Source of the DNA: a virus | Reading direction: 5' to 3' (one strand) | IMG/VR virus record: IMGVR_UViG_3300045988_038276 | DNA: 40,757 nucleotides | Shown: piece by piece, positions 1 through 40,757 of the stretch | Position numbering within the stretch: the first letter of the stretch is position 1 | How the letters are laid out: every line of letters begins with the position of its first letter | Notes under the pieces: generated by a model | Told to the model about the DNA's origin: nothing | The model's database searches: none | The model's input: the letters and a program-made list of their open reading frames with translations, nothing else | Position numbers and translations under genes: made by a program

Positions 1-141
1 AGGTCGTCCCTGATGTGCTGGTAGGTGTCCATGTCGCCCTGCTCCAGCGCCCGGTACAGAATGGCGTAATAGCGGTTCTTGTTGCCGGTATTGGAGATGT
101 TGTAGATAGCCTTTTCCATCTCATACTGGAGCGGAATGTTG
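1..141. repeat. Terminal overlap, identical to 40617-40757 (circular-contig signature)
   Basis: Read directly. Both copies start aggtcgtccctgatgtgctgg and end ctggagcggaatgttg. Confidence 0.95.
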
Positions 142-8599: not shown

Positions 8600-10108
8600 T
8601 TACGAAAGGTCAAAACCGAACAGCTTAAACTTACGCTTGAGCGTTGCCAGTTCGCTGTCGGTGAGGCCCGCCTGGCTGATTTCATTAAGAAGCTGTTCCA
8701 CGCTGGAATAGTTGCGCCCGTTCCAGGTGAAGATGCCCTCGTCCTGGTCCCAGTCCAGGCTCGTCTTTCCACCGCTGCCGCTGCCCTTGCCGCCCTGGTT
8801 CTTCATCCAGTCGGCGTAATACCCGGCCAGCTTTCCGGCCTGGGTGGTGTTGTACCCGGCGGACAGCAGCCAGGCGTATGCGTCGCCCTCGCTGCGGATG
8901 CCCGCCTTGTACATTCCTGCGTACACGTCCTCGCTGGCGCTTGAGCCGCCCCTCTTGCTTCCGCCGGAGCTGCCGCCTCTGGAGGACCCGCCGCCGGAGC
9001 GGGCGGATGCCTGCGCCTTGTTGTATGCGCTCTTGAGGCCCGCGATCTCCTGGTCCGTGTACCCCAGGGCCTTGTAGCCGGAGAAGTCGCCGCCCGCCGC
9101 GAGGGTCTGGGCCTTTGCCAGCGCCCGGTTGTACTCCGTCTCGTCCTTGTAGGTCTCCCGGTTGTAGGCGGTCTCGTCCTCGTAGCGCTTGTCCGCGATC
9201 TGGTCCCGGCCCACGGAATAGTTCCACTCGTTGTTGTAGCGCTCGTCGCTGATATTGTCCCGATGCACGCCGTAGTCGAAGCTCCGGTCCGTGTTGTACT
9301 GGGCCAGGAGGTCGGCGTACTTGGCGTAGTCCCCCTGCTCCAGGGCCACCAGCATTTCCAGGTTTGCCCTCTGGGTGTTGCCCTCGTCCTGGTACATGGA
9401 GTAGGCAAGCTGTTTCAGCTCCGGGATTTTATCGGCAAGCGCCCCCATGTAGTTGTCATAGGTCTGCTGCGCTGCGCTGCCCGCATAGCTGCTTGCAAGG
9501 CCGCCCGTGCGGGCGCTGACCTGCCCCAGGGTGTCCTGCATCGCCCGCTCGCCGCTGCGCGTGTAGCTCTCCTTGTACTGCTGATAGGTGGGGTCCTTCT
9601 CCGGGTCGTAGCTGAACGCCTCCCGGTTAAGGATTTGGCGGGTTAGGTCGTCGATCTGGTTCTGGTAGCGGCTGGTGTAGGTGGGGGCCGCCTCGTAGGA
9701 GAAACCGCCGCCTCCGTTTCCTCGTCCGCCGCCGCCCATCTCCAGGGGAATGTAGCGGCTGCCGTCGCTGTCGCCGGAATAGCCGTAGTTGCTGCGGATG
9801 CGCTCCACATAGTCGTGGGCGTCTGCCCAGGTCGTTTTGCCTGCCGCCGCTGCCGCCCGGACCTCCGCCGCGCTCCGCAGCTCGTCATTGGAAAAATGCT
9901 CCTGGTCATATACGCTGCCGCCGTAGCTGCCCCGGTCGCTGCCGCCGCCCACCGTGTCGGCGCTGGGCGCGGCGGCCTTGCCGGTCTTGCTTCCGGTCTT
10001 GATGGCGCTGGTGGCATAGCCGTTCTCGTTATAGCTGATGTTGTAGCCGCCCTTGGAGACGGTCTTGCCCGCCAGGTCTTTGTTCCTGGACATATCGGGT
10101 TTTGCCAT
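8600..10108 (-). CDS. Structural protein of unknown function, Gly/Ser/Tyr-rich, 502 aa
   Basis: ORF track. RBS AGAGGAGG precedes the ATG. It lies in the tail/virion module and carries repeated D-x-x-Y-N-R-like motifs. Confidence 0.6.
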   Translation of the reverse strand: MAKPDMSRNKDLAGKTVSKGGYNISYNENGYATSAIKTGSKTGKAAAPSADTVGGGSDRGSYGGSVYDQEHFSNDELRSAAEVRAAAAAGKTTWADAHDYVERIRSNYGYSGDSDGSRYIPLEMGGGGRGNGGGGFSYEAAPTYTSRYQNQIDDLTRQILNREAFSYDPEKDPTYQQYKESYTRSGERAMQDTLGQVSARTGGLASSYAGSAAQQTYDNYMGALADKIPELKQLAYSMYQDEGNTQRANLEMLVALEQGDYAKYADLLAQYNTDRSFDYGVHRDNISDERYNNEWNYSVGRDQIADKRYEDETAYNRETYKDETEYNRALAKAQTLAAGGDFSGYKALGYTDQEIAGLKSAYNKAQASARSGGGSSRGGSSGGSKRGGSSASEDVYAGMYKAGIRSEGDAYAWLLSAGYNTTQAGKLAGYYADWMKNQGGKGSGSGGKTSLDWDQDEGIFTWNGRNYSSVEQLLNEISQAGLTDSELATLKRKFKLFGFDLS

Positions 10109-12829: not shown

Positions 12830-13531
12830 TTACACCGCGCGGACCCACAGGCCGTTGTTCTTCACATACAGCCCGCCGTCGTTGCCCGGCACGCTCTCAA
12901 CCGTGTAGCATCCATCGCTGTCTGTGCTGTCAGATACAACGATAGAAGATTTAAGATTAAAAGCGGGGCGCGGCGCGAAGTTGGCGTAGTACACGCGGTC
13001 GCGGCTCACGGTGCCGTCGGTGTAGATGCTGCACGCGTTGCTGTCATTCGAGTACGGGGAGCGCAGGCCCCAGCCGACGGCGGTCGCCGTCTCGTCCAGA
13101 TAGGCGATGCGCTTTGCGTTGTCGGAGAAATAGCTGAACGCCTTGCCCTCCGTCTGCCAGCCGCTCACGCCCGCCTCCGTGCAGGAGAGGGCAAAGCCCT
13201 TGCGGTAGATCGTGTGCAGCGTCGCCACCTGGTTGCCCTCCGCCACCACAATGGGGACGGGGACCAGGCACTCCCGGATTTTCTCGTCCAGTTTCAGCGG
13301 CCAGATGCCGTCACAGAAGTTGTCCAGCAGGCAGCCGATATATCGGTTCTTGTAGCTGCTGTCGTAGCTGGCCTCCCATTGGCGCTCATTAAAGGTGTCC
13401 TTGCGGATAAGGGTCACGCCCGTGCCGGTGCCGTAGTGGTCATTGTCCAGCTTGATGAACTTGGTGGGCTTGCTGTTTTCCGCCAGCTTCACCAGGCTGC
13501 CGTTTGCCAGATTGGAAAGTAACTGTCCCAT
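12830..13531 (-). CDS. DGR target protein 1 (likely receptor-binding protein), variable region near the C-terminus
   Basis: ORF track. RBS AAAGGAGAA. The C-terminal sequence GWGLRSPYSNDSNACSIYTDGTVSRDRVYYANFAPRPA is encoded by VR1. Confidence 0.85.
   Translation of the reverse strand: MGQLLSNLANGSLVKLAENSKPTKFIKLDNDHYGTGTGVTLIRKDTFNERQWEASYDSSYKNRYIGCLLDNFCDGIWPLKLDEKIRECLVPVPIVVAEGNQVATLHTIYRKGFALSCTEAGVSGWQTEGKAFSYFSDNAKRIAYLDETATAVGWGLRSPYSNDSNACSIYTDGTVSRDRVYYANFAPRPAFNLKSSIVVSDSTDSDGCYTVESVPGNDGGLYVKNNGLWVRAV
12962..13082 (-). repeat. DGR variable region VR1
   Basis: A 121-nt alignment to the TR (14925-15045) has 14 mismatches. Every one is at a T of the TR on the given strand, which is an A on the coding strand. 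Confidence 0.9.
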
Positions 13532-14696
13532 ATCGTTTTGTTCTCCTTTCGTCAGGTCCGGGCCGGGCAGCGGGGATGCCCGCCGCCCGCCTGGCCTCGT
13601 CTGCGCGGTCCAGAGCCATCAACAACCTGGACCGCATTTCTCTGCGGAGCTGCTTTGTGTCGCCGTGTTTGGCGTGTGCCTCCCAGGCGGTAAAGCTCTC
13701 CATGATTTTCTCCCGCGACACCTCGCCCGCCGCGTACTGCTTCTCCCACAGCCGGATGCGTCGTTTCATCCGCTTGATGGAGGAGTAGCGCAGCTTGCTG
13801 ACCACCTGGCCCGTCCGGGTCAGATAGGTGTGGAAGCCGCAGAAGTCGATGCCGTTTTGCAAGGGGAAGATGTTGGTCTTGTCGTTCAGCTCCAGGCCCA
13901 GCTTGGCAAATTCAAGCCTTGCAAGGCGCAGAGCCTCAACCGCTGTCGCCTTATCCGGGCAGATCACATACCAGTCGTCCATATACATCCCTGCCAGCGG
14001 CAGGTGCAGCTTCTCACCCACATAGTGCATGAAGGAGCTGACGTAGAACACCGCGTAGATGTGGCTCGTCTGGTGTCCCAGGGCCAGGCCCTCGTCCACG
14101 GCGTCGATGTATCGCCACATCAGCGCCCGGATGTCCGGGTCGGGAAACCGGGGTTCCAGCGCGGCCTTGAGCCGCCGGTGGTCGATGCTCTGGAAGAAGT
14201 GGCGGATGTCGCCCTTGATGACCCAGCCCTCGGCGTAGTCCCATTCCTCCATGGGCCGGTGGGGCAGACCGGCGGCCTTGCGTGCTGCCTCGTCCGCGCC
14301 CTTCCGCCGCAGGAAATAGGTCCTCATGTGCTGTTTCAGCATCTCCAGCCCGTAATGGGTCCCCTTGCCGTACTGGGCCGCGTAGGTGTTCAGCGTGAAG
14401 CTCCGGGCCAGCTCGTCGTAGACGATGTAATCCGTGAGCGCGTGCTGCACCACCTTGTCCCGGAACGTCGGGGCCTGGATAAGCCGCTTCTTGGGTTCGT
14501 AGATATAGAACGCGTCCAGCGGGTCCGGCTGGTGCGTCCCTTGCAAAAGCGATTTTGAGAGTATCAGCAGCTCCTCGATTGCGCTGTACTCAAAGGGTGC
14601 CGTACTCTTTTTGCCCCTCTTGCACCGTCTGGCCCGGTGGTAGGCCGTCCATAGGGTGTCAAAGGAGCACAGTTCCTGATAGGTCATATCACACAT
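13440..14696 (-). CDS. DGR-type reverse transcriptase
   Basis: YMDD catalytic motif. LGHQTSH occupies the position of the DGR [IVL]GxxxSQ motif. It sits next to the TR and Avd. The likely start is MTYQEL at 14687. The 3' end overlaps the target-1 start by 92 nt. Confidence 0.9.
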   Translation of the reverse strand: MCDMTYQELCSFDTLWTAYHRARRCKRGKKSTAPFEYSAIEELLILSKSLLQGTHQPDPLDAFYIYEPKKRLIQAPTFRDKVVQHALTDYIVYDELARSFTLNTYAAQYGKGTHYGLEMLKQHMRTYFLRRKGADEAARKAAGLPHRPMEEWDYAEGWVIKGDIRHFFQSIDHRRLKAALEPRFPDPDIRALMWRYIDAVDEGLALGHQTSHIYAVFYVSSFMHYVGEKLHLPLAGMYMDDWYVICPDKATAVEALRLARLEFAKLGLELNDKTNIFPLQNGIDFCGFHTYLTRTGQVVSKLRYSSIKRMKRRIRLWEKQYAAGEVSREKIMESFTAWEAHAKHGDTKQLRREMRSRLLMALDRADEARRAAGIPAARPGPDERRTKRYGTVTFQSGKRQPGEAGGKQQAHQVHQAGQ

Positions 14697-14924
14697 CCTT
14701 GCTTGGTTTTCGGATGGTGGAGCGCAGGTCCGGCATCGCTGATAGCGGCCAGTATCTCCCTCCGCCGGAGGTGTCCGGGGCTTTCCCCGGTAGCGAGCCT
14801 GGCAGCGTCGGTGCCATGTGTTTATCCCCCGTGTTCATGTCCACGGACGACGGGATATAGCCTCCTTTGATGATGGGCCTCTGCTTTCGCCGCAAGGGCT
14901 ACTTGTACGCGGTAATTCCATCAG

Positions 14925-15045
14925 AGCGGGGCGCGGCGCGAAGTTGGCGTTGTACACGTTGTTGTTGTTCACGGTGCCGTCGGTGTTGATGTTGTACGCG
15001 TTGTTGTCATTCGAGTTCGGGGAGCGCAGGCCCCAGTTGACGGCG
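14925..15045 (-). repeat. DGR template repeat (TR)
   Basis: The coding-strand sense reads AVNWGLRSPNSNDNNAYNINTDGTVNNNNVYNANFAPRPA, with 12 AAC codons. It matches VR1 and VR2 except at adenines. About 230 nt of non-coding spacer separate it from the RT. Confidence 0.9.
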
Positions 15046-15074: not shown

Positions 15075-15497
15075 CTATCGCCGCCGAACATCCTCTCTCG
15101 CCTGGGCAGCGCGGCTCCGGTCCTTCTCGTACCAGGCGGCGCACATATAGCGCACCGTCATCACCGCCTTGCTCCAGGTCGCGGCCTTTTGGCCGCTCAC
15201 GCCGGGGTATTGCTTGCTTTCTGCCATCCGCAGTATCTTCCGCTCCAGCTTCTTGCACGCGCAAAGGGCCTCCCGCTGCATCGCCAGCCGCTCCGCCGGT
15301 CTCTCCCGCAGGTCAATGAGGTTTGCGCCCTCAATGCACGAGCAGATGGTCTCTGCACCGTTCATCAGGGCCGTTCCGGTGGTGTAGCGGTATTTCTTGG
15401 GGATGACCTTCTCATTGGCGCAGGCGTCTGCCCTGTAAAGCCACATATCAGCCGCCTTGTTGCCCAGCTTGAAGTCATCGGTCTGTCTGTCAGTCAT
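15075..15497 (-). CDS. avd: Accessory variability determinant (Avd), four-helix-bundle family
   Basis: It lies immediately upstream of the TR. The PKKYRYTTG motif resembles Avd and 23S-rRNA-IVS four-helix-bundle proteins. The start MTDRQ at 15497 overlaps the upstream stop (ATGACTGA). Confidence 0.75.
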   Translation of the reverse strand: MTDRQTDDFKLGNKAADMWLYRADACANEKVIPKKYRYTTGTALMNGAETICSCIEGANLIDLRERPAERLAMQREALCACKKLERKILRMAESKQYPGVSGQKAATWSKAVMTVRYMCAAWYEKDRSRAAQAREDVRRR

Positions 15498-15723
15498 CGG
15501 GGCACCCTCGCTTTCGTGCTGCATCCAGCAGCTCGTCGCAGCCCTCTGCCTCCATCACCAGGTCCGGCCCCAGCCGGATGGTCACGGTCGCGCCGGTAGG
15601 GGAGCGCCCAGTCAGCACCAGACTGTCCTCCCGGCATATCCGGCATGGCTGCTCCAGCTCTGCCAGGAGGTTGGAGATCAGACAGGAAGCCTCCGCCCAG
15701 TCCTTACACGCTGCCCGCCGCAT
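15490..15723 (-). CDS. Hypothetical 77-aa protein translationally coupled to avd
   Basis: Track ORF 15490-15750. An internal Met is preferred as the start. The stop overlaps the avd ATG. Confidence 0.4.
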   Translation of the reverse strand: MRRAACKDWAEASCLISNLLAELEQPCRICREDSLVLTGRSPTGATVTIRLGPDLVMEAEGCDELLDAARKRGCPDD

Positions 15724-16174: not shown

Positions 16175-16735
16175 TTATCCGATATTGATGTAAACGTCGC
16201 CGTTGGCCCCCAGGCTGGAGGCGGGAGCGCCGTTGCCGAAGTAGATGTTGCGGAAGCCCTTGGTGCTGCCGCTGGTGGGCGACACGCCGGACACGCCGCC
16301 GGTGAACGCGCCGCCCGTCTTGGGCATTTTCTGGTCTGCATAGGCAAAAATGTCCTGGGCTTTGCCCTTGGGGTCATAGACCGCCTTGGTCATGTCGCCG
16401 GGGTTTACAGCGTCCGCGCCCTTGGGGATGCCGAAGTCGAAGATGGGGGCAGCGTCCGGGCTTCCGGCCCGCCGCTTCACCGTGGCCGCACTTCCGGCGG
16501 CCAGCGTGGTGGTCGTCCCCACCTGGATGTTAGGGGTAGAGCCGTCAGCACCGGCGGGTCCCTGTGCGCCGGTCGCGCCGGTCGCGCCCTTGGCCCCGGT
16601 CTCACCCTGGGGTCCCTGGATGCCCTGCTCTCCCTTCGGGCCTTGAGCGCCGGTCGCACCCTGCGGGCCTCTTGCGCCCTGCACGCCCTGGGGTCCCTGC
16701 GGACCCACAACCTTGCCCAGATCAATGGTAGGCAT
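16175..16735 (-). CDS. Collagen-like (G-X-Y repeat) fibre protein, 186 aa
   Basis: About 18 uninterrupted GXY triplets ([28 protein letters not shown]...). RBS GGAAGGAGGAA. Confidence 0.75.
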
Positions 16736-16753
16736 AGATGGTTCCTCCTTCCG

Positions 16754-17770
16754 TCAGATGTTTAGGCATAGATGCCCTGCATCGTTGATGTAATAGTCCG
16801 GGGCCTCGTTGCCGGTGTAGGTACACAGCAGATGCCCCTCGTCCGTCACGCTGAAATTGACCATGCCAGCCGTCTGCACGGCCACGCCGTCGATGCCGCG
16901 CGGTCCTTGCGGCCCCTGCACGCCCTGGGGTCCTTCCGGTCCCGTGGGTCCAACCGGGCCAGCAGCGCCTTGAACGCCCTGGGGTCCCTGGATGCCTTGG
17001 ATGCCCTGGACGCCGCGCTCGCCGGTCAGTCCGCGCTCGCCCTGGATGCCCTGCTTGCCGGTCTTGCCCTGGGGTCCCTCTGCGCCCTGTTCTCCCTGGT
17101 CGCCCTTGGAGGCGATAAGCAGCCAGTGGGCACCCTCCACGCCTCCGGCCACGTCCAGCTCCGGGGCCACGCCCTTGCACGCTGCCTTGCAGATGTAGGA
17201 GCTGCCCAGCCTGCTCACCTTCTGGAGGGGCAGATAGGTCTTTGCGCTGTCATAGGCTTCCCACACCTTCACGGCCTCCTCGGCCTGTTCCAGCGCCTCG
17301 ATGGCGTTTCCCACCAGGGTGCTCACCTGGGGTACAATGCCGTCGATCTGGGTCTGGAGCTGCTGCGCCTGGGTGGGCGTCGGCTCTTTCGGCGTGGTGT
17401 AGGCGTCGTTCGGCTTCACCAGCAGATGGTCCGTCACCGTGATGGCAACGGCGGTGGGGTCGCTCTCCCGGAAGCCCTCAATGGTAAAGCTGCACCAGCC
17501 CTCCAGGGCCAGCGGCTCCGCCGGAATGGCCGTGTCGAAGGTCAGCGGGTCCTTCTTTGCCACCAGGTCCTCCACGCTGTTGTACAGCAGCACCGCCACG
17601 GGGCTTTCGCCCAGGGCGTTGCGCCAGATGATGCGCTTGGAGAACGCCTCCCAGTCATCGCTCATAACGATGTGCAGTCCGGTCACATTGGCCTCGCCCT
17701 GCACGCCCGCGTTCTTGCTGTCCTTGCGGACAAATTCGCCGGTCACGGTCACATTGATGGTCCTGTCCAT
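16754..17770 (-). CDS. Tail fibre/baseplate-upper-like protein with a collagen-like repeat, 338 aa
   Basis: GXY run GDQGEQGAEGPQGKTGKQGIQGERGLTGERG... The N-terminus resembles BppU-type fibre anchors (weak). RBS AAAGGAGG. Confidence 0.65.
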   Translation of the reverse strand: MDRTINVTVTGEFVRKDSKNAGVQGEANVTGLHIVMSDDWEAFSKRIIWRNALGESPVAVLLYNSVEDLVAKKDPLTFDTAIPAEPLALEGWCSFTIEGFRESDPTAVAITVTDHLLVKPNDAYTTPKEPTPTQAQQLQTQIDGIVPQVSTLVGNAIEALEQAEEAVKVWEAYDSAKTYLPLQKVSRLGSSYICKAACKGVAPELDVAGGVEGAHWLLIASKGDQGEQGAEGPQGKTGKQGIQGERGLTGERGVQGIQGIQGPQGVQGAAGPVGPTGPEGPQGVQGPQGPRGIDGVAVQTAGMVNFSVTDEGHLLCTYTGNEAPDYYINDAGHLCLNI

Positions 17771-26038: not shown

Positions 26039-26166
26039 GCCTTGCCCTCCCATGCCGGGCAGGCGGTGTCCGGCTCCGTGAAGTCCGCGCAGCGTGGGCT
26101 GTCTCCGTTGAAGCATACGCCCTGGAAGTCCTCGTACCAGGCGCAGCTTCCGCAATTCTGCTTCAT
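26035..26166 (-). CDS. 43-aa Cys-rich micro-protein (below the ORF-track size cutoff)
   Basis: Hand translation: MKQNCGSCAWYEDFQGVCFNGDSPRCADFTEPDTACPAWEGKA. RBS GGGAGGAA. ATGA overlaps at both ends. Confidence 0.45.
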   Translation of the reverse strand: MKQNCGSCAWYEDFQGVCFNGDSPRCADFTEPDTACPAWEGKA

Positions 26167-26696
26167 GCCGTTTCCTCCCGTTCCATCGTCATGCGGGCCA
26201 GCAGGCTCTCATACATCCGCTTGTAGGTGTCCCGCTCCGTCTGGGCGATTACCAGGGCCATGGAGGCCGTGCCGTCCTCGGTGTCCCCGCGTACCGGCTC
26301 CGGCTCCTCCTCGTCCTCCTGGGGGCTTGCAAGGCCGTACTGGGCCAGCCCCAGGCCGGAGAGGAGGCCGAGGTCCACCTGCTCCATCTCCCGCCGGGTG
26401 CAGCGGCCAACGAAGCGCCCCACGCGGCTCTTGTCCACGGTGTACACGTTCTCGCACAGGGCCGTGCTGATCTGTTCGGTGGAGCGGATGGTGATGTGCT
26501 CCGGCAGCTCCTTCTTGGGGGAGGCGGAGCAGTAGACCACCTGGACCACGGGGCTGTTGTCGTTCAGAGCGTCGCAGCTCACGATGATGGCGGGCCGGTC
26601 CTTCATCAGCTCGTGGCCGATGGCGTTCGGTATATCTACCCAGTAAATCTCTCCGCGCCGCATAGCGTTGGCAGGGAATGTGCCTTTCTTTGCCAT
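26163..26696 (-). CDS. MazF/PemK-fold toxin domain with a roughly 60-aa acidic/helical C-terminal extension
   Basis: RGEIYWVDIPNAIGHELMKDRPAIIVS...TVDKSRV aligns by eye with EndoA/MazF (RGDVYFADL...GGVRPVLVI...TIDKQRL). The ATG at 26696 sits 7 nt after GGAGG. Confidence 0.7.
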   Translation of the reverse strand: MAKKGTFPANAMRRGEIYWVDIPNAIGHELMKDRPAIIVSCDALNDNSPVVQVVYCSASPKKELPEHITIRSTEQISTALCENVYTVDKSRVGRFVGRCTRREMEQVDLGLLSGLGLAQYGLASPQEDEEEPEPVRGDTEDGTASMALVIAQTERDTYKRMYESLLARMTMEREETA

Positions 26697-26698
26697 AA

Positions 26699-27352
26699 TC
26701 AAACCTCCGTGATAGTCAGATTGAAGCGTTCCCGCAGGAGCTTCTTTTTCATCTCGTACTGGGCCGTCTTGGTGGCCCGGCTCTTGACATCCTCCACCAC
26801 CGGCAGCCAGAACACGGCGCCGTACTTGTCCGGCGCGGTGGGGCGCTCGTAGGCGAAGTCGGCCACATAGTGGATGGCCCGGACCCGCTCGCCGGTCTCC
26901 GTGATGTAGCTTTCCTGGAGGGTGTACTGCTGCTGGAGGCGCAGGTTGCGTATCTGCCCGGCCTTGAGCATCAGCATCAGCTCGTCGTAGCGCCGAGCCT
27001 CCTTCTTGCTGTCGAAGCGGATGTTGCCCCGGCTGTCCGGCTGGTTGTGGTACTTGGGGGCCTTGGTCTTGCCCACGATGCCCAGCTTCGCCATGACCTG
27101 GCGCTGGGCCTCCGGCCCCATGCGTTGCAGGTCTGCGGCGGTCAGTCCCATCTCTCGTGCCTCCTTCCGTTTGGTGCAGCGGCGGGCCGGGCCAAAGCCC
27201 TGCCCCCGCAGAAACATCATGGGGTGCAGTAGCTTCCCGGACAGGCCGCAGAAAACTGTGTTGTCAACGACGCGCACATACTCGCACTCGTCGCAGTATT
27301 CGATTTGGCCCTCCCGCTCCAGGGCCATCTCCAGCGGGGTTTTATCCAGCAT
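26699..27352 (-). CDS. DUF1064-type (PD-(D/E)XK-like) protein with an N-terminal Cys-containing extension
   Basis: KYHNQPDSRGNIRFDSKKEARRY...YVADF...VEDVKSRATKT matches the DUF1064 pattern. An alternative start at MGLTAADLQRM is possible. Confidence 0.6.
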   Translation of the reverse strand: MLDKTPLEMALEREGQIEYCDECEYVRVVDNTVFCGLSGKLLHPMMFLRGQGFGPARRCTKRKEAREMGLTAADLQRMGPEAQRQVMAKLGIVGKTKAPKYHNQPDSRGNIRFDSKKEARRYDELMLMLKAGQIRNLRLQQQYTLQESYITETGERVRAIHYVADFAYERPTAPDKYGAVFWLPVVEDVKSRATKTAQYEMKKKLLRERFNLTITEV

Positions 27353-32917: not shown

Positions 32918-33381
32918 ACTGTTTTGTCCTCCTTTTTCTTACTGCGGCTTCTTGCCGCGTATTCTGCCAGCAGCCGCTTGAGAGCTGCGTCATGCCAGCT
33001 TTGCCAGGACGAATACCCGCACACCTGGAGCAGGTCGTCCGGCAGGCTTGCCGCGAACTCGCGGCTGATGCGGTAACACTTGCGGAAGCGCCCGGTGGGC
33101 GCTGTGGGCGGCGCGGTCTCCGTCTCGCTGGCCTCGCTGCGGCTTTCTGCTGTCGGCAGCGCCCCCAGCAGGTCCAGGTCCTCCGCGTCGTAGAGTTCCG
33201 TCCTGGACGCTCCCAGGACATCCTCCAGGGTCTTGAGCTGGTCTGCCGTCGGCAGGCATACGCCCTTCTCATACCGGCTTACCATGCCCACGTCAGCCCT
33301 GGGTTCCGTTTCTTTCAGTCTGGCGGACACCTGCGGCTGGGTCAGCCCCAGCGCCATCCGCCGCTCTTGTAGTCGGTTCAT
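32914..33381 (-). CDS. XRE-family HTH regulator with a C-terminal extension
   Basis: LGLTQPQVSARL...VSRYEKG is an HTH_3 pattern. RBS GAGGAGG. The start lies 89 nt inside the dcm 3' end. Confidence 0.7.
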   Translation of the reverse strand: MNRLQERRMALGLTQPQVSARLKETEPRADVGMVSRYEKGVCLPTADQLKTLEDVLGASRTELYDAEDLDLLGALPTAESRSEASETETAPPTAPTGRFRKCYRISREFAASLPDDLLQVCGYSSWQSWHDAALKRLLAEYAARSRSKKKEDKTV

Positions 33382-34126
33382 GCTCTGCCTCCTCTATCAG
33401 TCTGATTTGTTGGAAGAAGGGGAAGAACTGGGGCGGGCACACCGCGTTTCCGAGGCATCTAACTCTGTCCATCCAGTTGGGAAGCCCATCAACCATTCGG
33501 TCCATTCCGGGTTCAGATTTCCAGTACCCCCCCCCGCCAGGTAGGCCACTTTCTGGCATAGAAGCAACGACCTGGTGGATGTCGCGTCCTTCCGCAGGTG
33601 CCGGGCCAGCCCCGCCGCGTCCATCGCCGTCGGCGTGGGCCACGATTGCAAATCGGTATCTTTGGTGCGGAGCGCCGACGCCGCGAGCTGGAACCATAAA
33701 CGCCCGTGCGGTGTAGCCTTTACTTTCCAGGTTAGAAAGCACATCGTCGAGCGCCAAATTGAGGATGTTAGCAACATTCTCTCCAATGACCCAAGTGGGC
33801 CGCAGCTCGTCGATAACTCTAAGCATCTCCGGCCAGAGGTAGCGGTCATCGCTCTTGCCTCTGCGCTGTCCGGCTTTGGAGAATGGTTGGCACGGGAAGC
33901 CGCCGGAAATAATGTCAACTGTTCGTAGTCCGGTCCGTTCACAGAAACTCTCCTTTGTCAAAGTCCGAATGTCCCGCCAGCGTGGAACGTCCGGCCAATG
34001 TTTCTCCAGGACCCTGGTGGGGTAGTCGGCCCACTCGCATTGTCCCACGGTGTGGAAGCCTGCCCACTCGGCGGCCAGGTCCAGGCCGCCGATGCCGGAA
34101 AACAGGGAAAGGTGGGTCAACTCCAT
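33293..34126 (-). CDS. dcm: DNA (cytosine-5) methyltransferase, short-TRD type
   Basis: Motifs FSGIGG (I), GFPCQPFS (IV), ENV (VI), QRYRFAIV (VIII) and LGNAV (X). See the findings for the second frame and the G9 tract. Confidence 0.8.
   Translation of the reverse strand: MELTHLSLFSGIGGLDLAAEWAGFHTVGQCEWADYPTRVLEKHWPDVPRWRDIRTLTKESFCERTGLRTVDIISGGFPCQPFSKAGQRRGKSDDRYLWPEMLRVIDELRPTWVIGENVANILNLALDDVLSNLESKGYTARAFMVPARGVGAPHQRYRFAIVAHADGDGRGGAGPAPAEGRDIHQVVASMPESGLPGGGGYWKSEPGMDRMVDGLPNWMDRVRCLGNAVCPPQFFPFFQQIRLIEEAEHEPTTRAADGAGADPAAGVRQTERNGTQG
33527..33535 (-). repeat. G9 homopolymer (C9 on the given strand) inside dcm
   Basis: It encodes GGGG (codons 197-200). It is the point where two open frames with MTase-like motifs meet. 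Confidence 0.7.
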
Positions 34127-34131
34127 ATCAG

Positions 34132-34764
34132 CTATCCCTCATACGGGCTTTCCAGGGACCAGTCCCAGGTCTGCCCGCCTTGCCATTCCGTGGTGAAGTA
34201 GTTGTGTGCGCCGTCTCCGGTGAAGTACAGGTACTCCTTCGGCAGCACCCGGCCCACGCTGCCCACGCACTCCTTCTCGGCCATCCAGCGGGCCAGCACA
34301 TCCTCCACCAGGGCCAGGATGTCCGGGTCCACCGGGTTGCTGGGGTCGTAGCCGTAGAACTGGCAGGGCTGGGTCGTGATGCCCTCCACCGTGTCGGCCC
34401 AGAAGCGGTCCCCGCTGTCGTAGCGGTTCAACACGCACCAGATCGTGGCCGCCTGTTCCGTGGTGGAGCAGCCCCGTGCCTCGCCCCACACCATCTTTAC
34501 CAGGGCTACCTTGGACGCCTCCATCGGGTCGATGGCCTCCTGGTCCTCAAACTCCAGCGTGATGGGTTCCAGCGTGGGTGTCTCCGCCGGAAGCACCGTT
34601 GCCGTCACCGGCACGGTGGCCTCTGGTGTCTCCGGCTCTTGTGGACGCCCGCTCCAGGCGAACGCCGCAGCCACGGCCAGAAGGGCCAGCGCCAGGCAGG
34701 TGGCTCTCTGCATCGCGGCCCTGCGGCGGCGCTGCTGCTGCCTCCGCCGTTCAGTCCGGGTCAT
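34132..34764 (-). CDS. SleB-family cell-wall hydrolase with an N-terminal membrane anchor
   Basis: VWGEARGCSTTEQAATIWCVLNR...QPCQFYGY matches the Hydrolase_2 (SleB) pattern. The transmembrane segment is CLALALLAVAAAFAW. The start MTRTERRR overlaps the upstream gene by 14 nt. Confidence 0.65.
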   Translation of the reverse strand: MTRTERRRQQQRRRRAAMQRATCLALALLAVAAAFAWSGRPQEPETPEATVPVTATVLPAETPTLEPITLEFEDQEAIDPMEASKVALVKMVWGEARGCSTTEQAATIWCVLNRYDSGDRFWADTVEGITTQPCQFYGYDPSNPVDPDILALVEDVLARWMAEKECVGSVGRVLPKEYLYFTGDGAHNYFTTEWQGGQTWDWSLESPYEG

Positions 34765-35401
34765 AGGTGCTTCTCCTGCGGCGGTACAGCTCGTCGATAA
34801 GGTCCGTGTCGCTGTAATCGGCCAGCGCCTTGCCCTCGTCCTCGGTCTCAACCGATACAAGGATAGAGGATTTCAGATACAAAGCGGGGCGCGGCGCGAA
34901 GTAGGCGAGGAACACGTTGAAGCGGTCCACGGTGCCGTCGGCGACGACGCTGTACGCGTAGTAGTCATTCGAGGCCGGGGAGCTGTTGGTTGTCCAGCCT
35001 GTTGCCAGCCAATAGGGCTTGGAGGTCAGCGGCAGGATGCTGCGGTGCTTGCGGTACTCGTCAATGGTCAGCGCCCGCACGACGGCCAGGGGCTTGCCGT
35101 AGTCCGTCATGCCGTCCATGGTGGTCAGGTCGATGGGCCGCTCCACTACGGCGGAGAAGATGGCCGGGTGCTTGTCCCGCAGCCAGCGCTCCACGGTTTT
35201 GGAAAGCAGGCTGCCCGCGTAGTTGTTGTGGTCCTCACGCTCGGCGTCGTCATCCTCGAACTGGCAGCACTCCGGCAGCGTGTCGGCGGCCACCGCAAAG
35301 GCGGCGTCCAGGTCGTCCTCCAGCTTCACAAACTCCACTCCGTCGAGGGTGAAGCGTTCGCCCCGACGTACCTGTGCCAGGGCCAGGTCCTTCATTTTCA
35401 T
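34751..35401 (-). CDS. DGR target protein 2 (remote paralogue of target 1)
   Basis: The C-terminal sequence SSPASNDYYAYSVVADGTVDRFNVFLAYFAPRPA is encoded by VR2. The 43-aa post-VR tail is the same length as in target 1. Confidence 0.8.
   Translation of the reverse strand: MKMKDLALAQVRRGERFTLDGVEFVKLEDDLDAAFAVAADTLPECCQFEDDDAEREDHNNYAGSLLSKTVERWLRDKHPAIFSAVVERPIDLTTMDGMTDYGKPLAVVRALTIDEYRKHRSILPLTSKPYWLATGWTTNSSPASNDYYAYSVVADGTVDRFNVFLAYFAPRPALYLKSSILVSVETEDEGKALADYSDTDLIDELYRRRRSTYDPD
34883..34983 (-). repeat. DGR variable region VR2
   Basis: 101 nt align to TR 14925-15025 with 18 mismatches, all at TR adenines. Confidence 0.9.
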
Positions 35402-35422
35402 GTCCTTGTCCTCCTCTTTGGT

Positions 35423-35686
35423 TTACTGGCCGCTCTCGGCGGTCGTGGTGGTCCGCCGGTTGCCCCGGCGGCGGATTGCCTCTTGAAACGTCCTTTGAGC
35501 CAGGCGGGGGTCATACTCCGGGCGCTGGTTCTTGTCCAGCTTGCCCGTGTCGCCTCGTCGCAGCTCCTCATAGATCGTTGCGGGGTGGCATCCGATTTTG
35601 TAGGCGATGTCCAGCACGCGGGCTTCCTCCTGGTACATCTTTGCGATTTTCTTTCGGTCCTGGAAATCCAGGTACTTGCAGGCCAT
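35423..35686 (-). CDS. Stand-alone IS30-type N-terminal HTH protein, about 87 aa
   Basis: YLDFQDRKKIAKMYQEEARVLDIAYKIGCHPATIYEELRRG parallels HLTWNDRLTIEKMLREGYSKPQIARYLGVHHSTVYDECRRG of the adjacent transposase. The start MACKY follows AAAGGGGGTG. Confidence 0.55.
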   Translation of the reverse strand: MACKYLDFQDRKKIAKMYQEEARVLDIAYKIGCHPATIYEELRRGDTGKLDKNQRPEYDPRLAQRTFQEAIRRRGNRRTTTTAESGQ

Positions 35687-35707
35687 CACGCGCACCCCCT
35701 TTCCTGG

Positions 35708-35745
35708 GAAAAAATAAAGCCCGAAGGACTGTTTCATCCTTCGGG
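35708..35745 (-). terminator. Intrinsic terminator/attenuator in the leader of the HTH - target 2 - sleB - dcm operon
   Basis: A perfect 9-bp stem, CCCGAAGGA/TCCTTCGGG, is followed by CTTTATTTTTT. It lies between a TTGACA-17-TATCGT box and the ATG at 35686. Confidence 0.55.
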
Positions 35746-35749
35746 TTTT

Positions 35750-35779
35750 ACGATAGCATTTGCGGTGCCAAATGTCAAT
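35750..35779 (-). promoter_or_regulatory. Sigma-70-like promoter (TTGACA-17 nt-TATCGT)
   Basis: Read on the minus strand. It is a paralogue of the box upstream of the transposase. Confidence 0.45.
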
Positions 35780-35818
35780 ACTAAAACCCGAATTTCTTTG
35801 AAAAATTTTTTATAGGCT

Positions 35819-36859
35819 TTATAGGCTTGCAAGAAACACGTTGAAAAGTTCCGCAGAGGTGTGCCAGTCCAGGATTAACCGTGGGTAATTATTTATCCAG
35901 TCCTGGACCCGGCGCACCTCTTTTTGTGTTACCTTACGGAAGTCCGTGCCCTTGGGGAAAAACCACCGGATAAGCTGGTTCTGCTTCTCGTTGCTGCCGC
36001 GCTCTCCGGGGGACCTGGGGTGGCAGTAGTAGACGTGGGTGCGCTTCTCTCCGGGCAGCAGACAGGAGCGCTCCATGCCCTTGCAATCTGCAAATTCGCT
36101 CCCGTTGTCCACGGTGATGCTCTTGAACACCTGGCGGAACATAGCGGTCCCCATGCGGCGCTCCAGTCGGTCCAGAACGCCCACGACGCTGGCGGCGGTG
36201 TCGTCGTGCATCTTGCGGATGATCTCGTCCCGCGTCACGCGTCCGGTGAGGACGCACAGGGCGGCCTTGGTGCCCTTCTTACCCACTACGCTGTCCATCT
36301 CCCAGTGGCCCGGCTCCTCCCGGTTGTTGATGTGCTCCGGGCGATGCTCGATGCTGTCCCCTCTGGGGGCTTTCGCTGCTTTCACGCGGTTGTAGGTCCG
36401 TTTCTGGTCGCTCTTGTAGCGCAGCTCCTTGTTGGTCAGGGGCCACAAGTCCCCGTTCTCGATGTACTTATACACAGTCTGACGGCATAATGTGCAGGAG
36501 AAGGTGGTCTCCGGCGTTTTGCCCAGCATGGAGCAGGCAGCAGACGGGGAGTACCCCTCGGAGATGGTTTTGACCAGCCACCGGGCCAGCCGGTGGTCTT
36601 TGCCTATTTTCAGAGGCTTTTCCATGTTCTTCTTGCGGTCCAGGTGGTAGTCCTTGGCGACATCGGCGGAGTAGGAGATATAGGTGGTCAGGTCGCTACG
36701 TTTCAGCTCCACCGCGCCCCTCCGGCACTCGTCGTAGACCGTGCTGTGATGCACGCCCAGATAGCGGGCGATCTGCGGCTTGCTGTACCCCTCGCGGAGC
36801 ATTTTTTCAATGGTCAATCTGTCGTTCCAGGTCAAGTGTGCGCCCTTATATCTCGGCAT
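35819..36859 (-). mobile_element. IS30-family DDE transposase gene (element ends not defined)
   Basis: N-terminal HTH. The DDE-region motifs HWEMDSV, ITVDNGSEF and ERGSNEKQNQLIRWFFPKG are IS30-like. The start MPRYKG is at 36859. Confidence 0.8.
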
Positions 36860-36899
36860 AGGAAAACCTCCATTTGCAATACTTTTGCATAGCATTTGT

Positions 36900-36932
36900 A
36901 TATCTTTAGCACACTTTTTTCGGCCATGTCAA
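36900..36932 (-). promoter_or_regulatory. Sigma-70-like promoter for the transposase (TTGACA-17 nt-TAAAGA)
   Basis: The minus strand reads TATTGACATGGCCGAAAAAAGTGTGCTAAAGA. It is similar to the 35750-35779 box. Confidence 0.4.
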
Positions 36933-36945
36933 TAGCCCCGGAAGA

Positions 36946-36978
36946 TGCAAAAATCCCCCTACTATCCGTAGGGGGATT
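36946..36978 (-). terminator. Intrinsic terminator after the XRE gene
   Basis: A perfect 11-bp stem, AATCCCCCTAC/GTAGGGGGATT, is followed by TTTTTG on the minus strand. Confidence 0.7.
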
Positions 36979-36988
36979 TCAAAATTTT

Positions 36989-37231
36989 TTATTCTTTTCC
37001 GGTCAGCCAGTCCATCGTCACGCCCAGGACCTCGGCAAAGATCATCAGCTCGTAGTCCGTCACGAAGCGGTCCCCGGTCTCTATCTTGCTGATGGCCTCC
37101 CGCTCGATGAACACGCCCTTGACCTGCATCCTCGCAGCGAGGTCCGCCTGGGAGATGCGTTTGGTCGCCCGCACCTGGTGGATGCGGTCGCCGGAGATAT
37201 TCTTTTGTCCCTCAAAATCGTAAATCTTCAC
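36989..37231 (-). CDS. XRE-family HTH regulator, 80 aa (candidate repressor)
   Basis: ISQADLAARMQVKGVFIEREAISKIETG is an HTH_3 pattern. GTG start after AAGGAGGGG. Confidence 0.7.
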   Translation of the reverse strand: MKIYDFEGQKNISGDRIHQVRATKRISQADLAARMQVKGVFIEREAISKIETGDRFVTDYELMIFAEVLGVTMDWLTGKE

Positions 37232-37280
37232 ACGCAGCCCCTCCTTGGCACCTTGACAGTACCACGGAAAAGGGCTATCT

Positions 37281-37299
37281 TTGTAATAAAGATTTACAA
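37281..37299. promoter_or_regulatory. Palindrome TTGTAA-N7-TTACAA upstream of the XRE gene (candidate operator)
   Basis: Read directly in the AT-rich gap between the endolysin stop and the XRE start. Confidence 0.35.
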
Positions 37300-37333
37300 C
37301 CTTTATCGTTTTGGTACAAAAAGTGGGAATATC

Positions 37334-38110
37334 TCACTTCACGTCCGGCAGCTTGTCCAGCATCCCGGCGGCCTCCAGCAGATTGTAGATGATCTGGGCC
37401 GTGGCCTCGCGGGTGATGGGCTTCTGCCATCCGTAGTTGCCCGCACCGTCTCCGGCGAAGATACCCTTGCGCTTGCAGTAGTCGGTAGCCTCCTTGGCCC
37501 AGGCGGAGGGGTTGTCCCCGGTGTCGGCGCAGCTCGTGAGCTGTTTGGTGTCCATAGCTTCTTCATCCTTTCCGGCCTTTGCGGCCTCCAGTCTTTTGTT
37601 GACTTCTGCGGCGATCTGGCCGTGGCGGCTGTAAAGCCAGTCACCAGGGCAGGCTTTCGCCGCAAACCAGCGGTGGACGGTCATGTTCTGCCGGTCTACC
37701 TGACCTACGAGGTTTTTATCTCCCTTCCAAAGCAGCCTGGGGATGCCGTTGCGCTGGCAGATGTCCACCAGCAGGTCAATGAGGGACTTGTAGGCCGCGT
37801 CGGAGACCGGCCACGGGTCCTTGGCAACGGTGTTCGCCACCTCGATGGTGATAGCCCGATTGTCGTTGCTGGCGGAGGAGGTACACCACGAACGGTTGGC
37901 CTCGTCCACATACAGACCGATGCGCCCATCGCTGCCGATGCCGTAGTTGCTGCTGGCCTGGCGTTCCTTGCTCTGGAACAGCTCGCCGCAGCGCTCCACG
38001 GACAGGTTCCCGGCCATACAGTGGATGGAGATGGTGTCGATGGTGTGCTTGCGCTTGCCGGAATGGTTGGGGGACAGCTTGGTGTAGCTGACCAGCGGGC
38101 TGTTACTCAT
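37334..38110 (-). CDS. Endolysin: N-acetylmuramoyl-L-alanine amidase (Amidase_2/PGRP type) with a C-terminal SLH domain
   Basis: IHCMAG...ASSNYGIGSDGRIGLYVDE...NDNRAITIEV is amidase-like. SAWAKEATDYCKRKGIFAGDGAGNYGWQKPITREATAQ is SLH-like. Confidence 0.8.
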   Translation of the reverse strand: MSNSPLVSYTKLSPNHSGKRKHTIDTISIHCMAGNLSVERCGELFQSKERQASSNYGIGSDGRIGLYVDEANRSWCTSSASNDNRAITIEVANTVAKDPWPVSDAAYKSLIDLLVDICQRNGIPRLLWKGDKNLVGQVDRQNMTVHRWFAAKACPGDWLYSRHGQIAAEVNKRLEAAKAGKDEEAMDTKQLTSCADTGDNPSAWAKEATDYCKRKGIFAGDGAGNYGWQKPITREATAQIIYNLLEAAGMLDKLPDVK

Positions 38111-38420
38111 TGCCCGCACCTTCTTTCAGAACGCCGTGGTTGAGTTCGTAGACGGCGGCCTCAATGAGCGCGTCGATGCGGTCCTCGTCCAGGGTGATGC
38201 CGTGCTCCGCCAGCCAGTTGAGGACGTAGGCTTTCTTCTCCTCGCCGCGCCCGCTGCCACGGTAGATTTGCTCCGCCGCCGTCACGGCGATTTTCACCCA
38301 GGCATTGATCTCCGCCTGCTGCTGGGCCGTGGTCCGGCTCTTGATATAGGGAATGACCACGGCGGTGATGACGGCAGCCACAAGGGCAGCCGCCGCTTCA
38401 ATGATGGTCGTAATATCCAT
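38103..38420 (-). CDS. Holin, LL-H-like
   Basis: An N-terminal transmembrane segment (IIEAAAALVAAVITAVVIPYI) and an ...AEQ...G..K...V tail. It lies immediately upstream of, and overlaps, the endolysin. Confidence 0.55.
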   Translation of the reverse strand: MDITTIIEAAAALVAAVITAVVIPYIKSRTTAQQQAEINAWVKIAVTAAEQIYRGSGRGEEKKAYVLNWLAEHGITLDEDRIDALIEAAVYELNHGVLKEGAGNE

Positions 38421-38435
38421 AATATGCTTCCTCCT

Positions 38436-38705
38436 TTAGCAATCTCGTTTGATTTTCTTCTCCGGCGCGTTGCTCTTGCCGAACACCACCCCGTCGTTGT
38501 GCTCGAAGATGTTCTCCACCACCTTGAGGACGTTCACGCCCAGGATGGTCTCGATGGCCTGCTTGGACAGGTCCACCACCGGGAACACTTGGCCCAGGCG
38601 CACCGTGGCGTACAGGGCGATAAGGTAGGACATTGTGACCCACCCCAGCGCGGCGATCTGCGTTGTCACGAACAGCCGCCGCGTGGTTGTCTTAATGTTC
38701 TTCAT
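38436..38705 (-). CDS. Membrane protein of the lysis cassette
   Basis: Start MKNIKTTT follows GGAGG. The hydrophobic segment is LFVTTQIAALGWVTMSYLIALYATV. Confidence 0.5.
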   Translation of the reverse strand: MKNIKTTTRRLFVTTQIAALGWVTMSYLIALYATVRLGQVFPVVDLSKQAIETILGVNVLKVVENIFEHNDGVVFGKSNAPEKKIKRDC

Positions 38706-40009: not shown

Positions 40010-40757
40010 TTACCATTCGCTGGTGTAGACGGTCCCCCAGAGGAAAGCCCGCTGCTCGTCGGTCAGGCCGGAGAAGTCCTCCAGCCATTCCCGCACATGG
40101 TCGCTCTTGGCCTCGCCCTTCACGGTCTTGCCGTCTGCGTCCTTGGTCCCTTCCATCTCGTTGTAGGCGGTGTGGAACAGGACGTACTCCCAGGGTTCGA
40201 TGCCCTGGGCCTCTGCGTCGTCGGCCTGGGCCATCCACTTGGTGCCGACCTCGTACTGTCCGTCGGAATGGTCCGCCAGGGCGCTCTTGTCGGCCAGATC
40301 ATAGGCCGCCTTGAGCACCTTGTCGCGGGTCTCGTCGTCCATTCCCCGGAAAATAGGGCTGCTCGTCAGGTCGTCTGCCATGCTGCGGTAGTCGCTGGCC
40401 CGCTGGTCGGAGTATGCCTGGTAGGCGCTGCTGCCCAGGTCGTCCGCGCCGAAGGTTTCCTCCTTCTCCTTGGCCGGGGCGTATTTGTCCCGGCTGCCGA
40501 TAAGGTCCCGCGCCCTCTGGGGCAGGGTGTAGTCCGGGTCCTTCTCAACGGCCTTGTTGTAGCGGCTCCGCATGGCGCTGTCGATGCTTGCGCCGTCCAC
40601 GCCCATGCTGTTCATCAGGTCGTCCCTGATGTGCTGGTAGGTGTCCATGTCGCCCTGCTCCAGCGCCCGGTACAGAATGGCGTAATAGCGGTTCTTGTTG
40701 CCGGTATTGGAGATGTTGTAGATAGCCTTTTCCATCTCATACTGGAGCGGAATGTTG
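40010..40757 (-). CDS. C-terminal end of the giant 3063-codon ORF; the last 141 nt duplicate bases 1-141
   Basis: Track ORF 40010-40735 begins at an internal Met (MEKAIYNISNTG). The same frame stays open upstream across the junction into 1-8585. Confidence 0.8.
   Translation of the reverse strand, partial: NIPLQYEMEKAIYNISNTGNKNRYYAILYRALEQGDMDTYQHIRDDLMNSMGVDGASIDSAMRSRYNKAVEKDPDYTLPQRARDLIGSRDKYAPAKEKEETFGADDLGSSAYQAYSDQRASDYRSMADDLTSSPIFRGMDDETRDKVLKAAYDLADKSALADHSDGQYEVGTKWMAQADDAEAQGIEPWEYVLFHTAYNEMEGTKDADGKTVKGEAKSDHVREWLEDFSGLTDEQRAFLWGTVYTSEW
40617..40757. repeat. Terminal overlap, identical to 1-141
   Basis: Read directly. Confidence 0.95.

Follow-up and report, generated by a model that had tools for sequence, protein, structure and literature searches.

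A remote second VR in the early region of a temperate phage, served by the same TR as the VR of the DGR cassette

The genome carries one TR and two VRs, of which VR1 lies in target 1 of the DGR cassette and VR2 in target 2, a small protein gene at some distance. Taken as a whole, the observations are best explained by VR2 being an active second acceptor of a single-TR DGR, located in a stand-alone DUF6273 protein encoded in the early region of the phage, and the probability of this reading was estimated at about 85%.

The phage genome and its DGR cassette

The window, i.e. the whole stretch of DNA that was analysed (40,757 nt; IMG/VR record IMGVR_UViG_3300045988_038276), includes the whole of a circular phage genome, 40,616 bp in length, with positions 1–141 repeated at 40617–40757. 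The G+C content is 62%, and the - strand holds nearly all genes. The phage, a gut phage with a circular genome of 40.6 kb, is temperate and its host is an uncultured member of the Oscillospiraceae. The host was inferred from the sequences flanking a prophage copy, for which the best match was an uncultured Oscillospiraceae MAG (89%). The search for target 2 in species-representative genomes gave no match, and when the early region was compared by megablast with GenBank phages, the sole match was one of 275 nt to an amidase.

The genome map was built from PHROG annotation. The packaging and head genes include the small and large terminase, an HNH endonuclease, the portal and the major head protein. 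In the tail part two collagen-like tail-fibre genes precede the DGR cassette, and a gene for an internal virion protein is followed by one for a 3,063-aa polyvalent protein with a PBECR5 nuclease domain, the latter spanning the ends of the window. The lysis genes consist of a holin and an endolysin, and the early genes of a regulator, MazG, RecE, RecT, a replication initiator, a helicase loader and a Holliday-junction resolvase. After target 2 come the phrog_30550 gene and that of a C5 methyltransferase. The PHROG annotation of this phage gave neither a sheath nor a tape-measure gene.

On the - strand the cassette runs in the order Avd, TR, RT and target 1, which is that of a standard DGR cassette, here situated within the structural module (Table 1). 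The TR contains 12 AAC codons, in the reading frame common to both targets, and the spacer between TR and RT is presumably part of the DGR RNA, as in BPP-1. The reverse transcriptase (RT) has the motif LGHQTSH where [ILV]GxxxSQ is usual. It is 46% identical to the RTs of FP_Toutatis, Lelie and Brigit, the identity across phages with published DGRs being 43–48%. Target 1 passes the Pfam threshold of DUF6273 with 116.5 bits.

Table 1. Positions of the DGR components, of both targets and of the features surrounding target 2 in the window.
Feature	Position	Strand	Remarks
Target 1 gene	12830..13531	-	233 aa; structural module; Pfam DUF6273 1.5e-33; phrog_9958 9.5e-45
VR1	12962..13082	-	14/14 mismatches at TR adenines over 121 nt
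DGR reverse transcriptase	13440..14696	-	RVT_1 match; YMDD
Spacer between TR and RT	14697..14924	-	defined by position only
TR	14925..15045	-	encodes ...SPNSNDNNAYNINTDGTVNNNNVYNANFAPRPA; three-copy repeat family
Avd accessory protein	15075..15524	-	phrog_3206 'Avd protein of DGR' 4.7e-32
phrog_30550 protein	34132..34764	-	N-terminal membrane anchor; weak SleB-type hydrolase match
Target 2 gene	34751..35401	-	216 aa; stand-alone DUF6273/phrog_9958 protein
Flank 3' of VR2	34853..34882	-	24/30 with VR1, 8/30 with TR; encodes LYLKSSILVS
VR2	34883..34983	-	aa 140–173 of target 2; 83/101 identity to TR
G/C-only run, 14 nt, at 3' end of VR2	34884..34897	-	coding strand GCGCCGCGCCCCGC; same in TR and VR1
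HTH_38 DNA-binding protein	35423..35737	-	first gene within prophage left end; directly upstream of target 2
Promoter-like site TTGACA-17-TG-TATCGT	35750..35778	-	consensus scan; straddles circle junction/attP ~35764–35767
IS30-family DDE transposase	35819..36895	-	phrog_4646 2e-128; collinear in relatives

Transfer from one TR to two VRs

In the sliding comparison of TR 14925–15025 against both strands of the window, three copies only reached the cut-off of at least 60/101 identical positions: the TR itself, the copy at 12962 (VR1, 89/101) and the copy at 34883 (VR2, 83/101). All 18 mismatches between VR2 and TR were found at a T of the + strand, i.e. at an A of the coding - strand, and the same was true of each of the 14 mismatches between VR1 and TR over 121 nt. 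The chance of mismatches falling on adenines alone is ~6e-10 for VR2, because only 31 of the 101 nucleotides of the TR are A, and ~1e-8 for VR1. The two VRs differ from each other both in the sites that have mutated and in the bases found there. The three-way comparison thereby confirmed what the first-pass annotation had reported of the repeats, namely that VR2 at 34883–34983 differs from TR 14925–15025 by 18 mismatches, all at adenines, that one TR serves two VRs located ca. 20 kb apart, and that these have been diversified independently.

The final 20 nt are identical in TR, VR1 and VR2, and include the 14-nt run of G and C only, which forms the core of the IMH-type element. The 30 nt 3' of the repeat are alike at 24/30 positions between VR1 and VR2 while TR matches either of them at 8–9/30, in agreement with the earlier statement that the targets share an IMH-like flank. 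The difference is that between IMH and IMH*, with the VRs as acceptors and the TR as donor only. Hairpins 3' of the VRs, as known from BPP-1, were also searched for: small ones were present at both VRs, with energies no better than those of shuffled sequences (z = -1.4 and +0.2).

Among related phages VR2 behaves as a true second acceptor of the single-TR DGR, and as one that is still in use. In IMG/VR, 17 genes were 92–95% identical to target 2, and the comparison included 16 IMG/VR genes of equal length together with target 2 of this genome, altogether 17 sequences. Every one of the 17 had a VR2 sequence of its own. Variation was present at 29 of the 31 TR-adenine sites, as against two non-A sites, and nucleotide diversity was 0.176 in VR2 and 0.020 in the remainder of the gene. 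The variation of VR2 among the relatives was as high as that of VR1. The first-pass annotation had named an invariant VR2 beside a varying VR1 as contrary evidence, and the pattern found was thus a different one.

The target 2 locus and the RT locus were present together in ten contigs, of which eight had a TR that accounted for their VR1 as well as their VR2 by A-only changes. The match with the own TR held down to relatives with 51% identity in target 2 and 56% in RT. In L014/L073 the pattern was seen for VR2 alone, VR1 lying beyond the stretch compared. In L012/L044 VR2 was clean, and VR1 was out of register at its 3' end with 16 non-A mismatches; in L027/L057 VR1 was clean, and the comparison of VR2 slid past the 5' boundary, giving eight non-A mismatches. 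A C/T polymorphism within the G/C run was mirrored in both VRs, and likewise the TR changes present in L008, as an ongoing one-way transfer from the TR predicts. The orthologues of target 2 formed more than 100 clusters at 90% identity in the protein search, some of them with thousands of members.

It is extremely unlikely that VR2 would be a relic, i.e. a copy of TR or VR1 that arose a single time and has ceased to be diversified. Gulyaeva et al. found no read-level variation at either VR of Lelie in culture (PMC11792537), and apart from that a relic has its general conceivability in its favour; against it stand the 17 differing VR2 sequences, the changes of which are restricted to TR-adenine sites, and the way in which VR2 tracks the polymorphisms of the TR. 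The likelihood of a chance similarity, or of an assembly chimera produced by the repeats, is next to negligible. Public assemblies do include a chimeric protein (P0121) in which target 2 and target 1 are joined at the VR, but the locus was recovered from dozens of independent contigs and from a prophage within a 222-kb bacterial scaffold, and the adenine restriction alone, with the probability given above, argues against chance.

Fold and genomic position of target 2

Target 2 matched phrog_9958 with 1.4e-60, residues 4–210 being aligned with profile positions 3–209 of 210. The match to Pfam DUF6273 (PF19789) stayed below the gathering threshold (14.0 bits vs 23.5, E = 0.046) and covered residues 132–178 only. 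Similarity between target 1 and target 2 was confined in BLASTP to aa 133–190, that is, to the VR and its flanks. When the VR-free N-terminal parts of the target 2 family and the target 1 family were compared with hhalign, a collinear, weak match was obtained (E = 0.0085), the power of the comparison being poor because the target 1 set has a Neff of 1.0. The two targets had earlier been called paralogues, and this holds as far as both match phrog_9958 end to end, while the BLASTP similarity extends over aa 133–190 only; since the N-terminal-only profile match is weak, the paralogy rests on the shared PHROG. Also the earlier descriptions of the protein were correct: both targets have FAPRPA followed by a 43-aa tail, and target 2 is acidic (pI 4.69) with no N-terminal hydrophobic stretch or signal peptide. 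The missing signal peptide means little in a phage protein released by lysis.

With a shallow alignment of 12 sequences AF2 produced an unusable model (pLDDT 37), whereas an alignment of 56 sequences gave a model of target 2 with pLDDT 74.9 and pTM 0.72. This model includes an N-terminal beta region, helices, a beta-hairpin (148–152/158–162) inside the VR and a C-terminal helix (198–212). The variable residues 143, 145–148, 150–155, 159–162, 164, 165 and 167 are placed on the hairpin and its flanking loops. Target 2 is thus modelled as a globular domain with a hypervariable beta-hairpin (~148–162; loops 143–147 and 164–167) and an amphipathic C-terminal helix, the last of which is kept across the family, Toutatis and Brigit included. 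In Foldseek searches the model matched DUF6273 models at 1e-7 to 7e-4 and the N-terminal DUF6273 domain of PDB 9qa6 at 7e-4. The latter, a domain of an IgA peptidase, was the one significant match in the PDB, with no Mtd, TvpA or lectin among the significant matches there, and the sequence profile search of the PDB likewise gave just this one weak match. The membership of target 2 in DUF6273 is therefore supported also by predicted fold. Clustered at 50%, the family comprised 123 representatives (E <= 1e-10), mostly stand-alone proteins of 180–260 aa.

The gene order of the PHROG map places target 2 at the start of the early region and well away from the structural genes. The order endolysin, transposase, HTH, target 2 and phrog_30550 is collinear in at least eight relatives at 97–98% identity and in divergent ones at ~70%. 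In the prophage copy of the bacterial scaffold the host genes rpmG-secE-nusG-rplKAJL abut the phage just upstream of the HTH gene, so that target 2 is the second gene from the left end of the prophage. The transposase is located at the right end, where it adjoins differing host sequences, and this IS30-family enzyme acts as the integrase of the phage. Both the map and the prophage junction agree with the first-pass annotation in assigning target 2 to an early or integration region away from the structural module. Also the neighbours named there on the upstream side, the IS30 transposase and HTH_38, were found as described; the gene on the downstream side, the start of which overlaps the stop of target 2 by 14 nt, had been given as a SleB-like hydrolase, and its match to the SleB-type Hydrolase_2 is weak and below the Pfam cut-off.

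On the - strand of 33000–38600 the sole promoter-like site was at 35778–35750. Its -35 box comes from the right end and its -10 box from the left end, and the putative promoter is complete only in the circular genome because the boxes straddle the junction. From this position it would drive HTH, then target 2 and then the early genes. Being a consensus match, the site suggests an early expression of target 2 that depends on the circle.

The placement of the small target was similar in other phages. Gp06 of Brigit comes after cI/cro-like regulators and before the exonuclease and RecT genes, gp24 of Toutatis lies between early hypothetical genes and replication genes, and the small target gene of nd4 just before a gene annotated as DNA polymerase III; in Lelie, too, the small target has an early-region placement. 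The early position of the small target is thus conserved in at least four phage lineages.

Comparison with known systems and the role of target 2

Full-length homologues of target 2 with ~32% identity were found by tblastn in FP_Toutatis, Lelie, FP_Brigit, nd4 and nd12, and all five phages also carry a related RT. In Toutatis, which was re-checked, the TR matches a VR in gp82, beside the RT, and a second VR in the early gene gp24, with adenine-specific changes. Likewise gp06 of Brigit matches its own TR in an adenine-specific manner.

The two-target layout is already described in related Faecalibacterium and gut phages. In the survey of Wu et al. 2017, phage-associated DGRs often had an adjacent target together with a non-adjacent one in the same prophage (PMC5758913). 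Baykov et al. 2023 described DGRs in which a tentaclin and a small DUF6273 protein, 'tgt2', are the two targets (PMC10743442), and Egorov et al. 2024 a second VR of Toutatis in a core gene 17,480 nt from the TR (bioRxiv 10.1101/2024.10.15.618418). According to Gulyaeva et al. 2024, Lelie, CP11 and Lagaffe have two VRs each, the DUF6273 targets being 'large and small' (PMC11792537). The novelty implied by the first-pass annotation was therefore overstated, as non-adjacent prophage targets were catalogued in 2017 and small remote DUF6273 targets have been published for nd4/nd12, Toutatis, Lelie and CP11.

Phages nd4 and nd12 resemble the present one in having one TR and two VRs with VR2 the shorter, and their tgt2 is like target 2 a small DUF6273 protein of a single domain. 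In tgt2 the VR, close to the 3' end, forms a hypervariable beta-hairpin with short flanking helices, and the gene is situated among early/replication genes, in these phages ~10 kb from the RT. The identity to target 2 is, however, only ~30%, both phages have a tail sheath while none was found here, and their adjacent target is a large tentaclin whereas here it is a small protein of 233 aa belonging to DUF6273 and to the PHROG of target 2. In tentaclin an N-terminal DUF6273 domain is followed by Ig-like domains and the VR is near the 5' end (Baykov 2023, PMC10743442); Ig-like domains are absent from targets 1 and 2 (233 and 216 aa), and the VR of these is near the 3' end. Toutatis shares with the present phage the cassette of Avd, TR, RT and target 1 and a remote VR2, 17.5 kb off, and its gp24 is a DUF6273 protein of 215 aa from the early region that shares 32% identity with target 2 across 95% of the length. 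The class of Toutatis, Lelie and CP11 belongs nevertheless to another phage genus with another host genus, its target 1 is a Hoc-like tentaclin, and its integrase is conventional in contrast to the IS30-family transposase here. With BPP-1 (Mtd) the common features are the adenine-specific transfer from TR to VR, Avd, a G/C-rich IMH and AAC-rich TR codons. BPP-1 has, however, a single adjacent target, the trimeric tip of a tail fibre with N-terminal anchoring domains, while the present phage has two small targets, the VR lies 43 codons before the stop and Foldseek gave no match to Mtd. The multi-target DGRs of Treponema denticola and of Wu et al. 2017 (PMC5758913) also have one TR and several distant VRs, but unlike here they mostly concern cellular surface proteins. 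What differs in the present phage is the collagen-like fibres, the lack of a sheath or tape-measure gene, the IS30-type integrase, the Oscillospiraceae host and the small adjacent target.

If the DGR works as that of BPP-1, the RNA containing the TR would be reverse transcribed by RT/Avd with misincorporation opposite A, and the cDNA would be primed at the IMH of either VR and would then replace that VR. The homing to VR2 would accordingly take place in trans, across 20 kb. Target 2 itself would be a free ligand-binding module produced from the early transcription unit. The position of the gene is suggestive of a function other than receptor binding, as the first-pass annotation had proposed, and there is close to an even chance that target 2 acts off the tail machinery, either within the infected cell or as a soluble factor.

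Two explanations would tie target 2 to the virion. One of these regards it as an ordinary tail component recently relocated, for example through the adjacent IS30-type transposase, and it was considered very unlikely: besides the proximity of target 2 to the transposase gene nothing was seen in its favour, while the gene order is collinear in the close and the divergent relatives alike, the transposase is the phage integrase at the right end of the prophage, and the homologues of Toutatis, Brigit and nd4 are likewise found in early regions. A displacement of target 2 by a stray IS was rejected in view of the collinear relatives and of the place of the transposase at the prophage right end. A displaced tail gene had been the other contrary outcome named in the first-pass annotation, and as target 2 is collinear in the relatives and has an equivalent position in other phage genera, it is no one-off displaced tail gene. 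The other explanation, to which a real though less than even likelihood was given, is that target 2 belongs to the virion as an accessory receptor-binding protein or adhesin, with a gene outside the late operon, and docks by its C-terminal helix. A receptor-binding role is the view of the literature for tgt2 and for gp24 of Toutatis, and the phage DGR targets that have been studied experimentally are all virion-exposed binders (general knowledge; PMC10743442, bioRxiv 10.1101/2024.10.15.618418). It is in line with this that the paralogue target 1, with the same fold and the same TR, is situated in the structural module, and that the C-terminal helix is kept family-wide. On the other hand, the target 2 gene had an early or replication-associated location in all lineages examined and never adjoined a structural gene, and the AF2 model contains no N-terminal anchoring domain like the beta-prism of Mtd (PMC10743442). 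Furthermore, VR1 and VR2 were no more alike within a genome (0.20) than between genomes (0.19), and thus gave no sign of a shared ligand.

A more specific form of the non-virion role was judged rather unlikely, namely that target 2 is an early, cytoplasmic, hypervariable and antibody-like binder of a polymorphic intracellular or cell-envelope partner, expressed from a promoter that exists only in the circle and diversified by a DGR it has in common with a virion adhesin. Candidates for such a partner are a host defence or takeover target and components of competing phages.

As an active second acceptor, VR2 makes this phage a well-documented and very abundant further case of a DGR with two targets. 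The phage type is a different one, and both targets are small DUF6273 proteins. The one point in addition to the literature is that the small target lies consistently in the early region, in every lineage looked at; published work treats the small target as receptor-binding by analogy with Mtd. If target 2 is not packaged, phage DGRs would diversify something besides host attachment.

Genome form and integration

The first 141 nt of the window (1-141) are identical to the last (40617-40757), and the window is thus a complete genome of 40,616 bp, circular or terminally redundant. Integration of the phage appears to be carried out by an IS30-family DDE transposase and not by a tyrosine or serine integrase (window 35700-36895). 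The prophage ends form imperfect inverted repeats, the left being CGCAAATGCTATCGTAAAACCCGAA and the right, as reverse complement, GCCAAATGTCAATACTAAAACCCGAA; in the circular form they abut at about 35764-35767 with a spacer of 1-2 nt. The host flanks differed in all three contigs (L033 at 9560-9700, L106 and L107), so that the choice of target is loose. Gut-bacterial prophages with IS30-type transposases have been mentioned previously (bioRxiv 10.1101/214213).

The two boxes of the promoter-like site at the junction lie in opposite phage ends, and the site is thus present only in the circular genome. Junction promoters are known for the circles of IS30 and IS911, and the putative junction promoter of the phage resembles these. 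Directly after the site comes a hairpin with a T-run, and the HTH gene as annotated starts within this element.

Features located in the window and, in the last line, in a related contig
Feature	Position	Strand	Remarks
Promoter-like site	35750-35778	-	-35 box from right phage end, -10 box from left end
Hairpin and T-run	35720-35745	-
Two adjoining collagen-like (Gly-X-Y repeat) tail-fibre genes	16175-17770	-	just upstream of the DGR cassette
MazF/PemK-like toxin homologue	26163-26702	-	phrog_1936, 5.7e-52
TR of L040 (IMGVR_UViG_3300045988_030448)	2172

Other genes of the phage and the surroundings of target 2

One ORF of 3,063 aa spans the window ends, running on the minus strand from 8585 down to 1 and then from 40616 down to 40010. 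The presence of a PBECR5 nuclease domain (aa 1094-1304; Pfam 1.4e-64) together with HExxH motifs assigns its predicted product to the 'polyvalent proteins', a kind thought to enter with the injected DNA. Neither a tail sheath nor a tape-measure gene was detected in the phage genome, which suggests a short-tailed virion. The gene of the MazF/PemK-like toxin homologue adjoins a Holliday-junction resolvase gene, where the early region ends.

Target 2 ends 14 nt inside the downstream phrog_30550 gene (34751-34764), and this overlap suggests translational coupling of the two genes. The phrog_30550 protein has an Arg-rich N-terminal segment and a membrane anchor, and its match to SleB-type hydrolases is weak. 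A frameshift fusion of target 2 with this protein was found in some public sequences (P0131). The segment 33393-34137, just 3' of the phrog_30550 gene, is a small variable island, absent or replaced in several relatives that are collinear elsewhere; a truncated C5 DNA methyltransferase lies inside it.

RT, template repeat and variable copies

The RT (13440-14696, minus strand) reads LGHQTSH at residues ~203-209, compared with the usual DGR RT motif [ILV]GxxxSQ. Its ORF runs ~90 nt into the beginning of target 1, and its C-terminal tail, beyond the part conserved in other phages (residues 4-353), is of low complexity.

The presence of two VRs leads to misassemblies in short-read metagenomes: two proteins from public assemblies (P0121 and P0314) are chimeras that join the N-terminal part of target 2, through the shared VR, to target 1.

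The TR of some relatives has changes at sites where the window TR has an adenine, and retains 28-30 A vs 31. In L040, paired with L008, the changed bases of the TR at former adenine sites are found in both VRs. In L045, paired with L020, VR1 carries the changed bases of the TR and VR2 differs at an adjacent adenine. The TR is thus itself subject to evolution, and its changes are passed on to the VRs.
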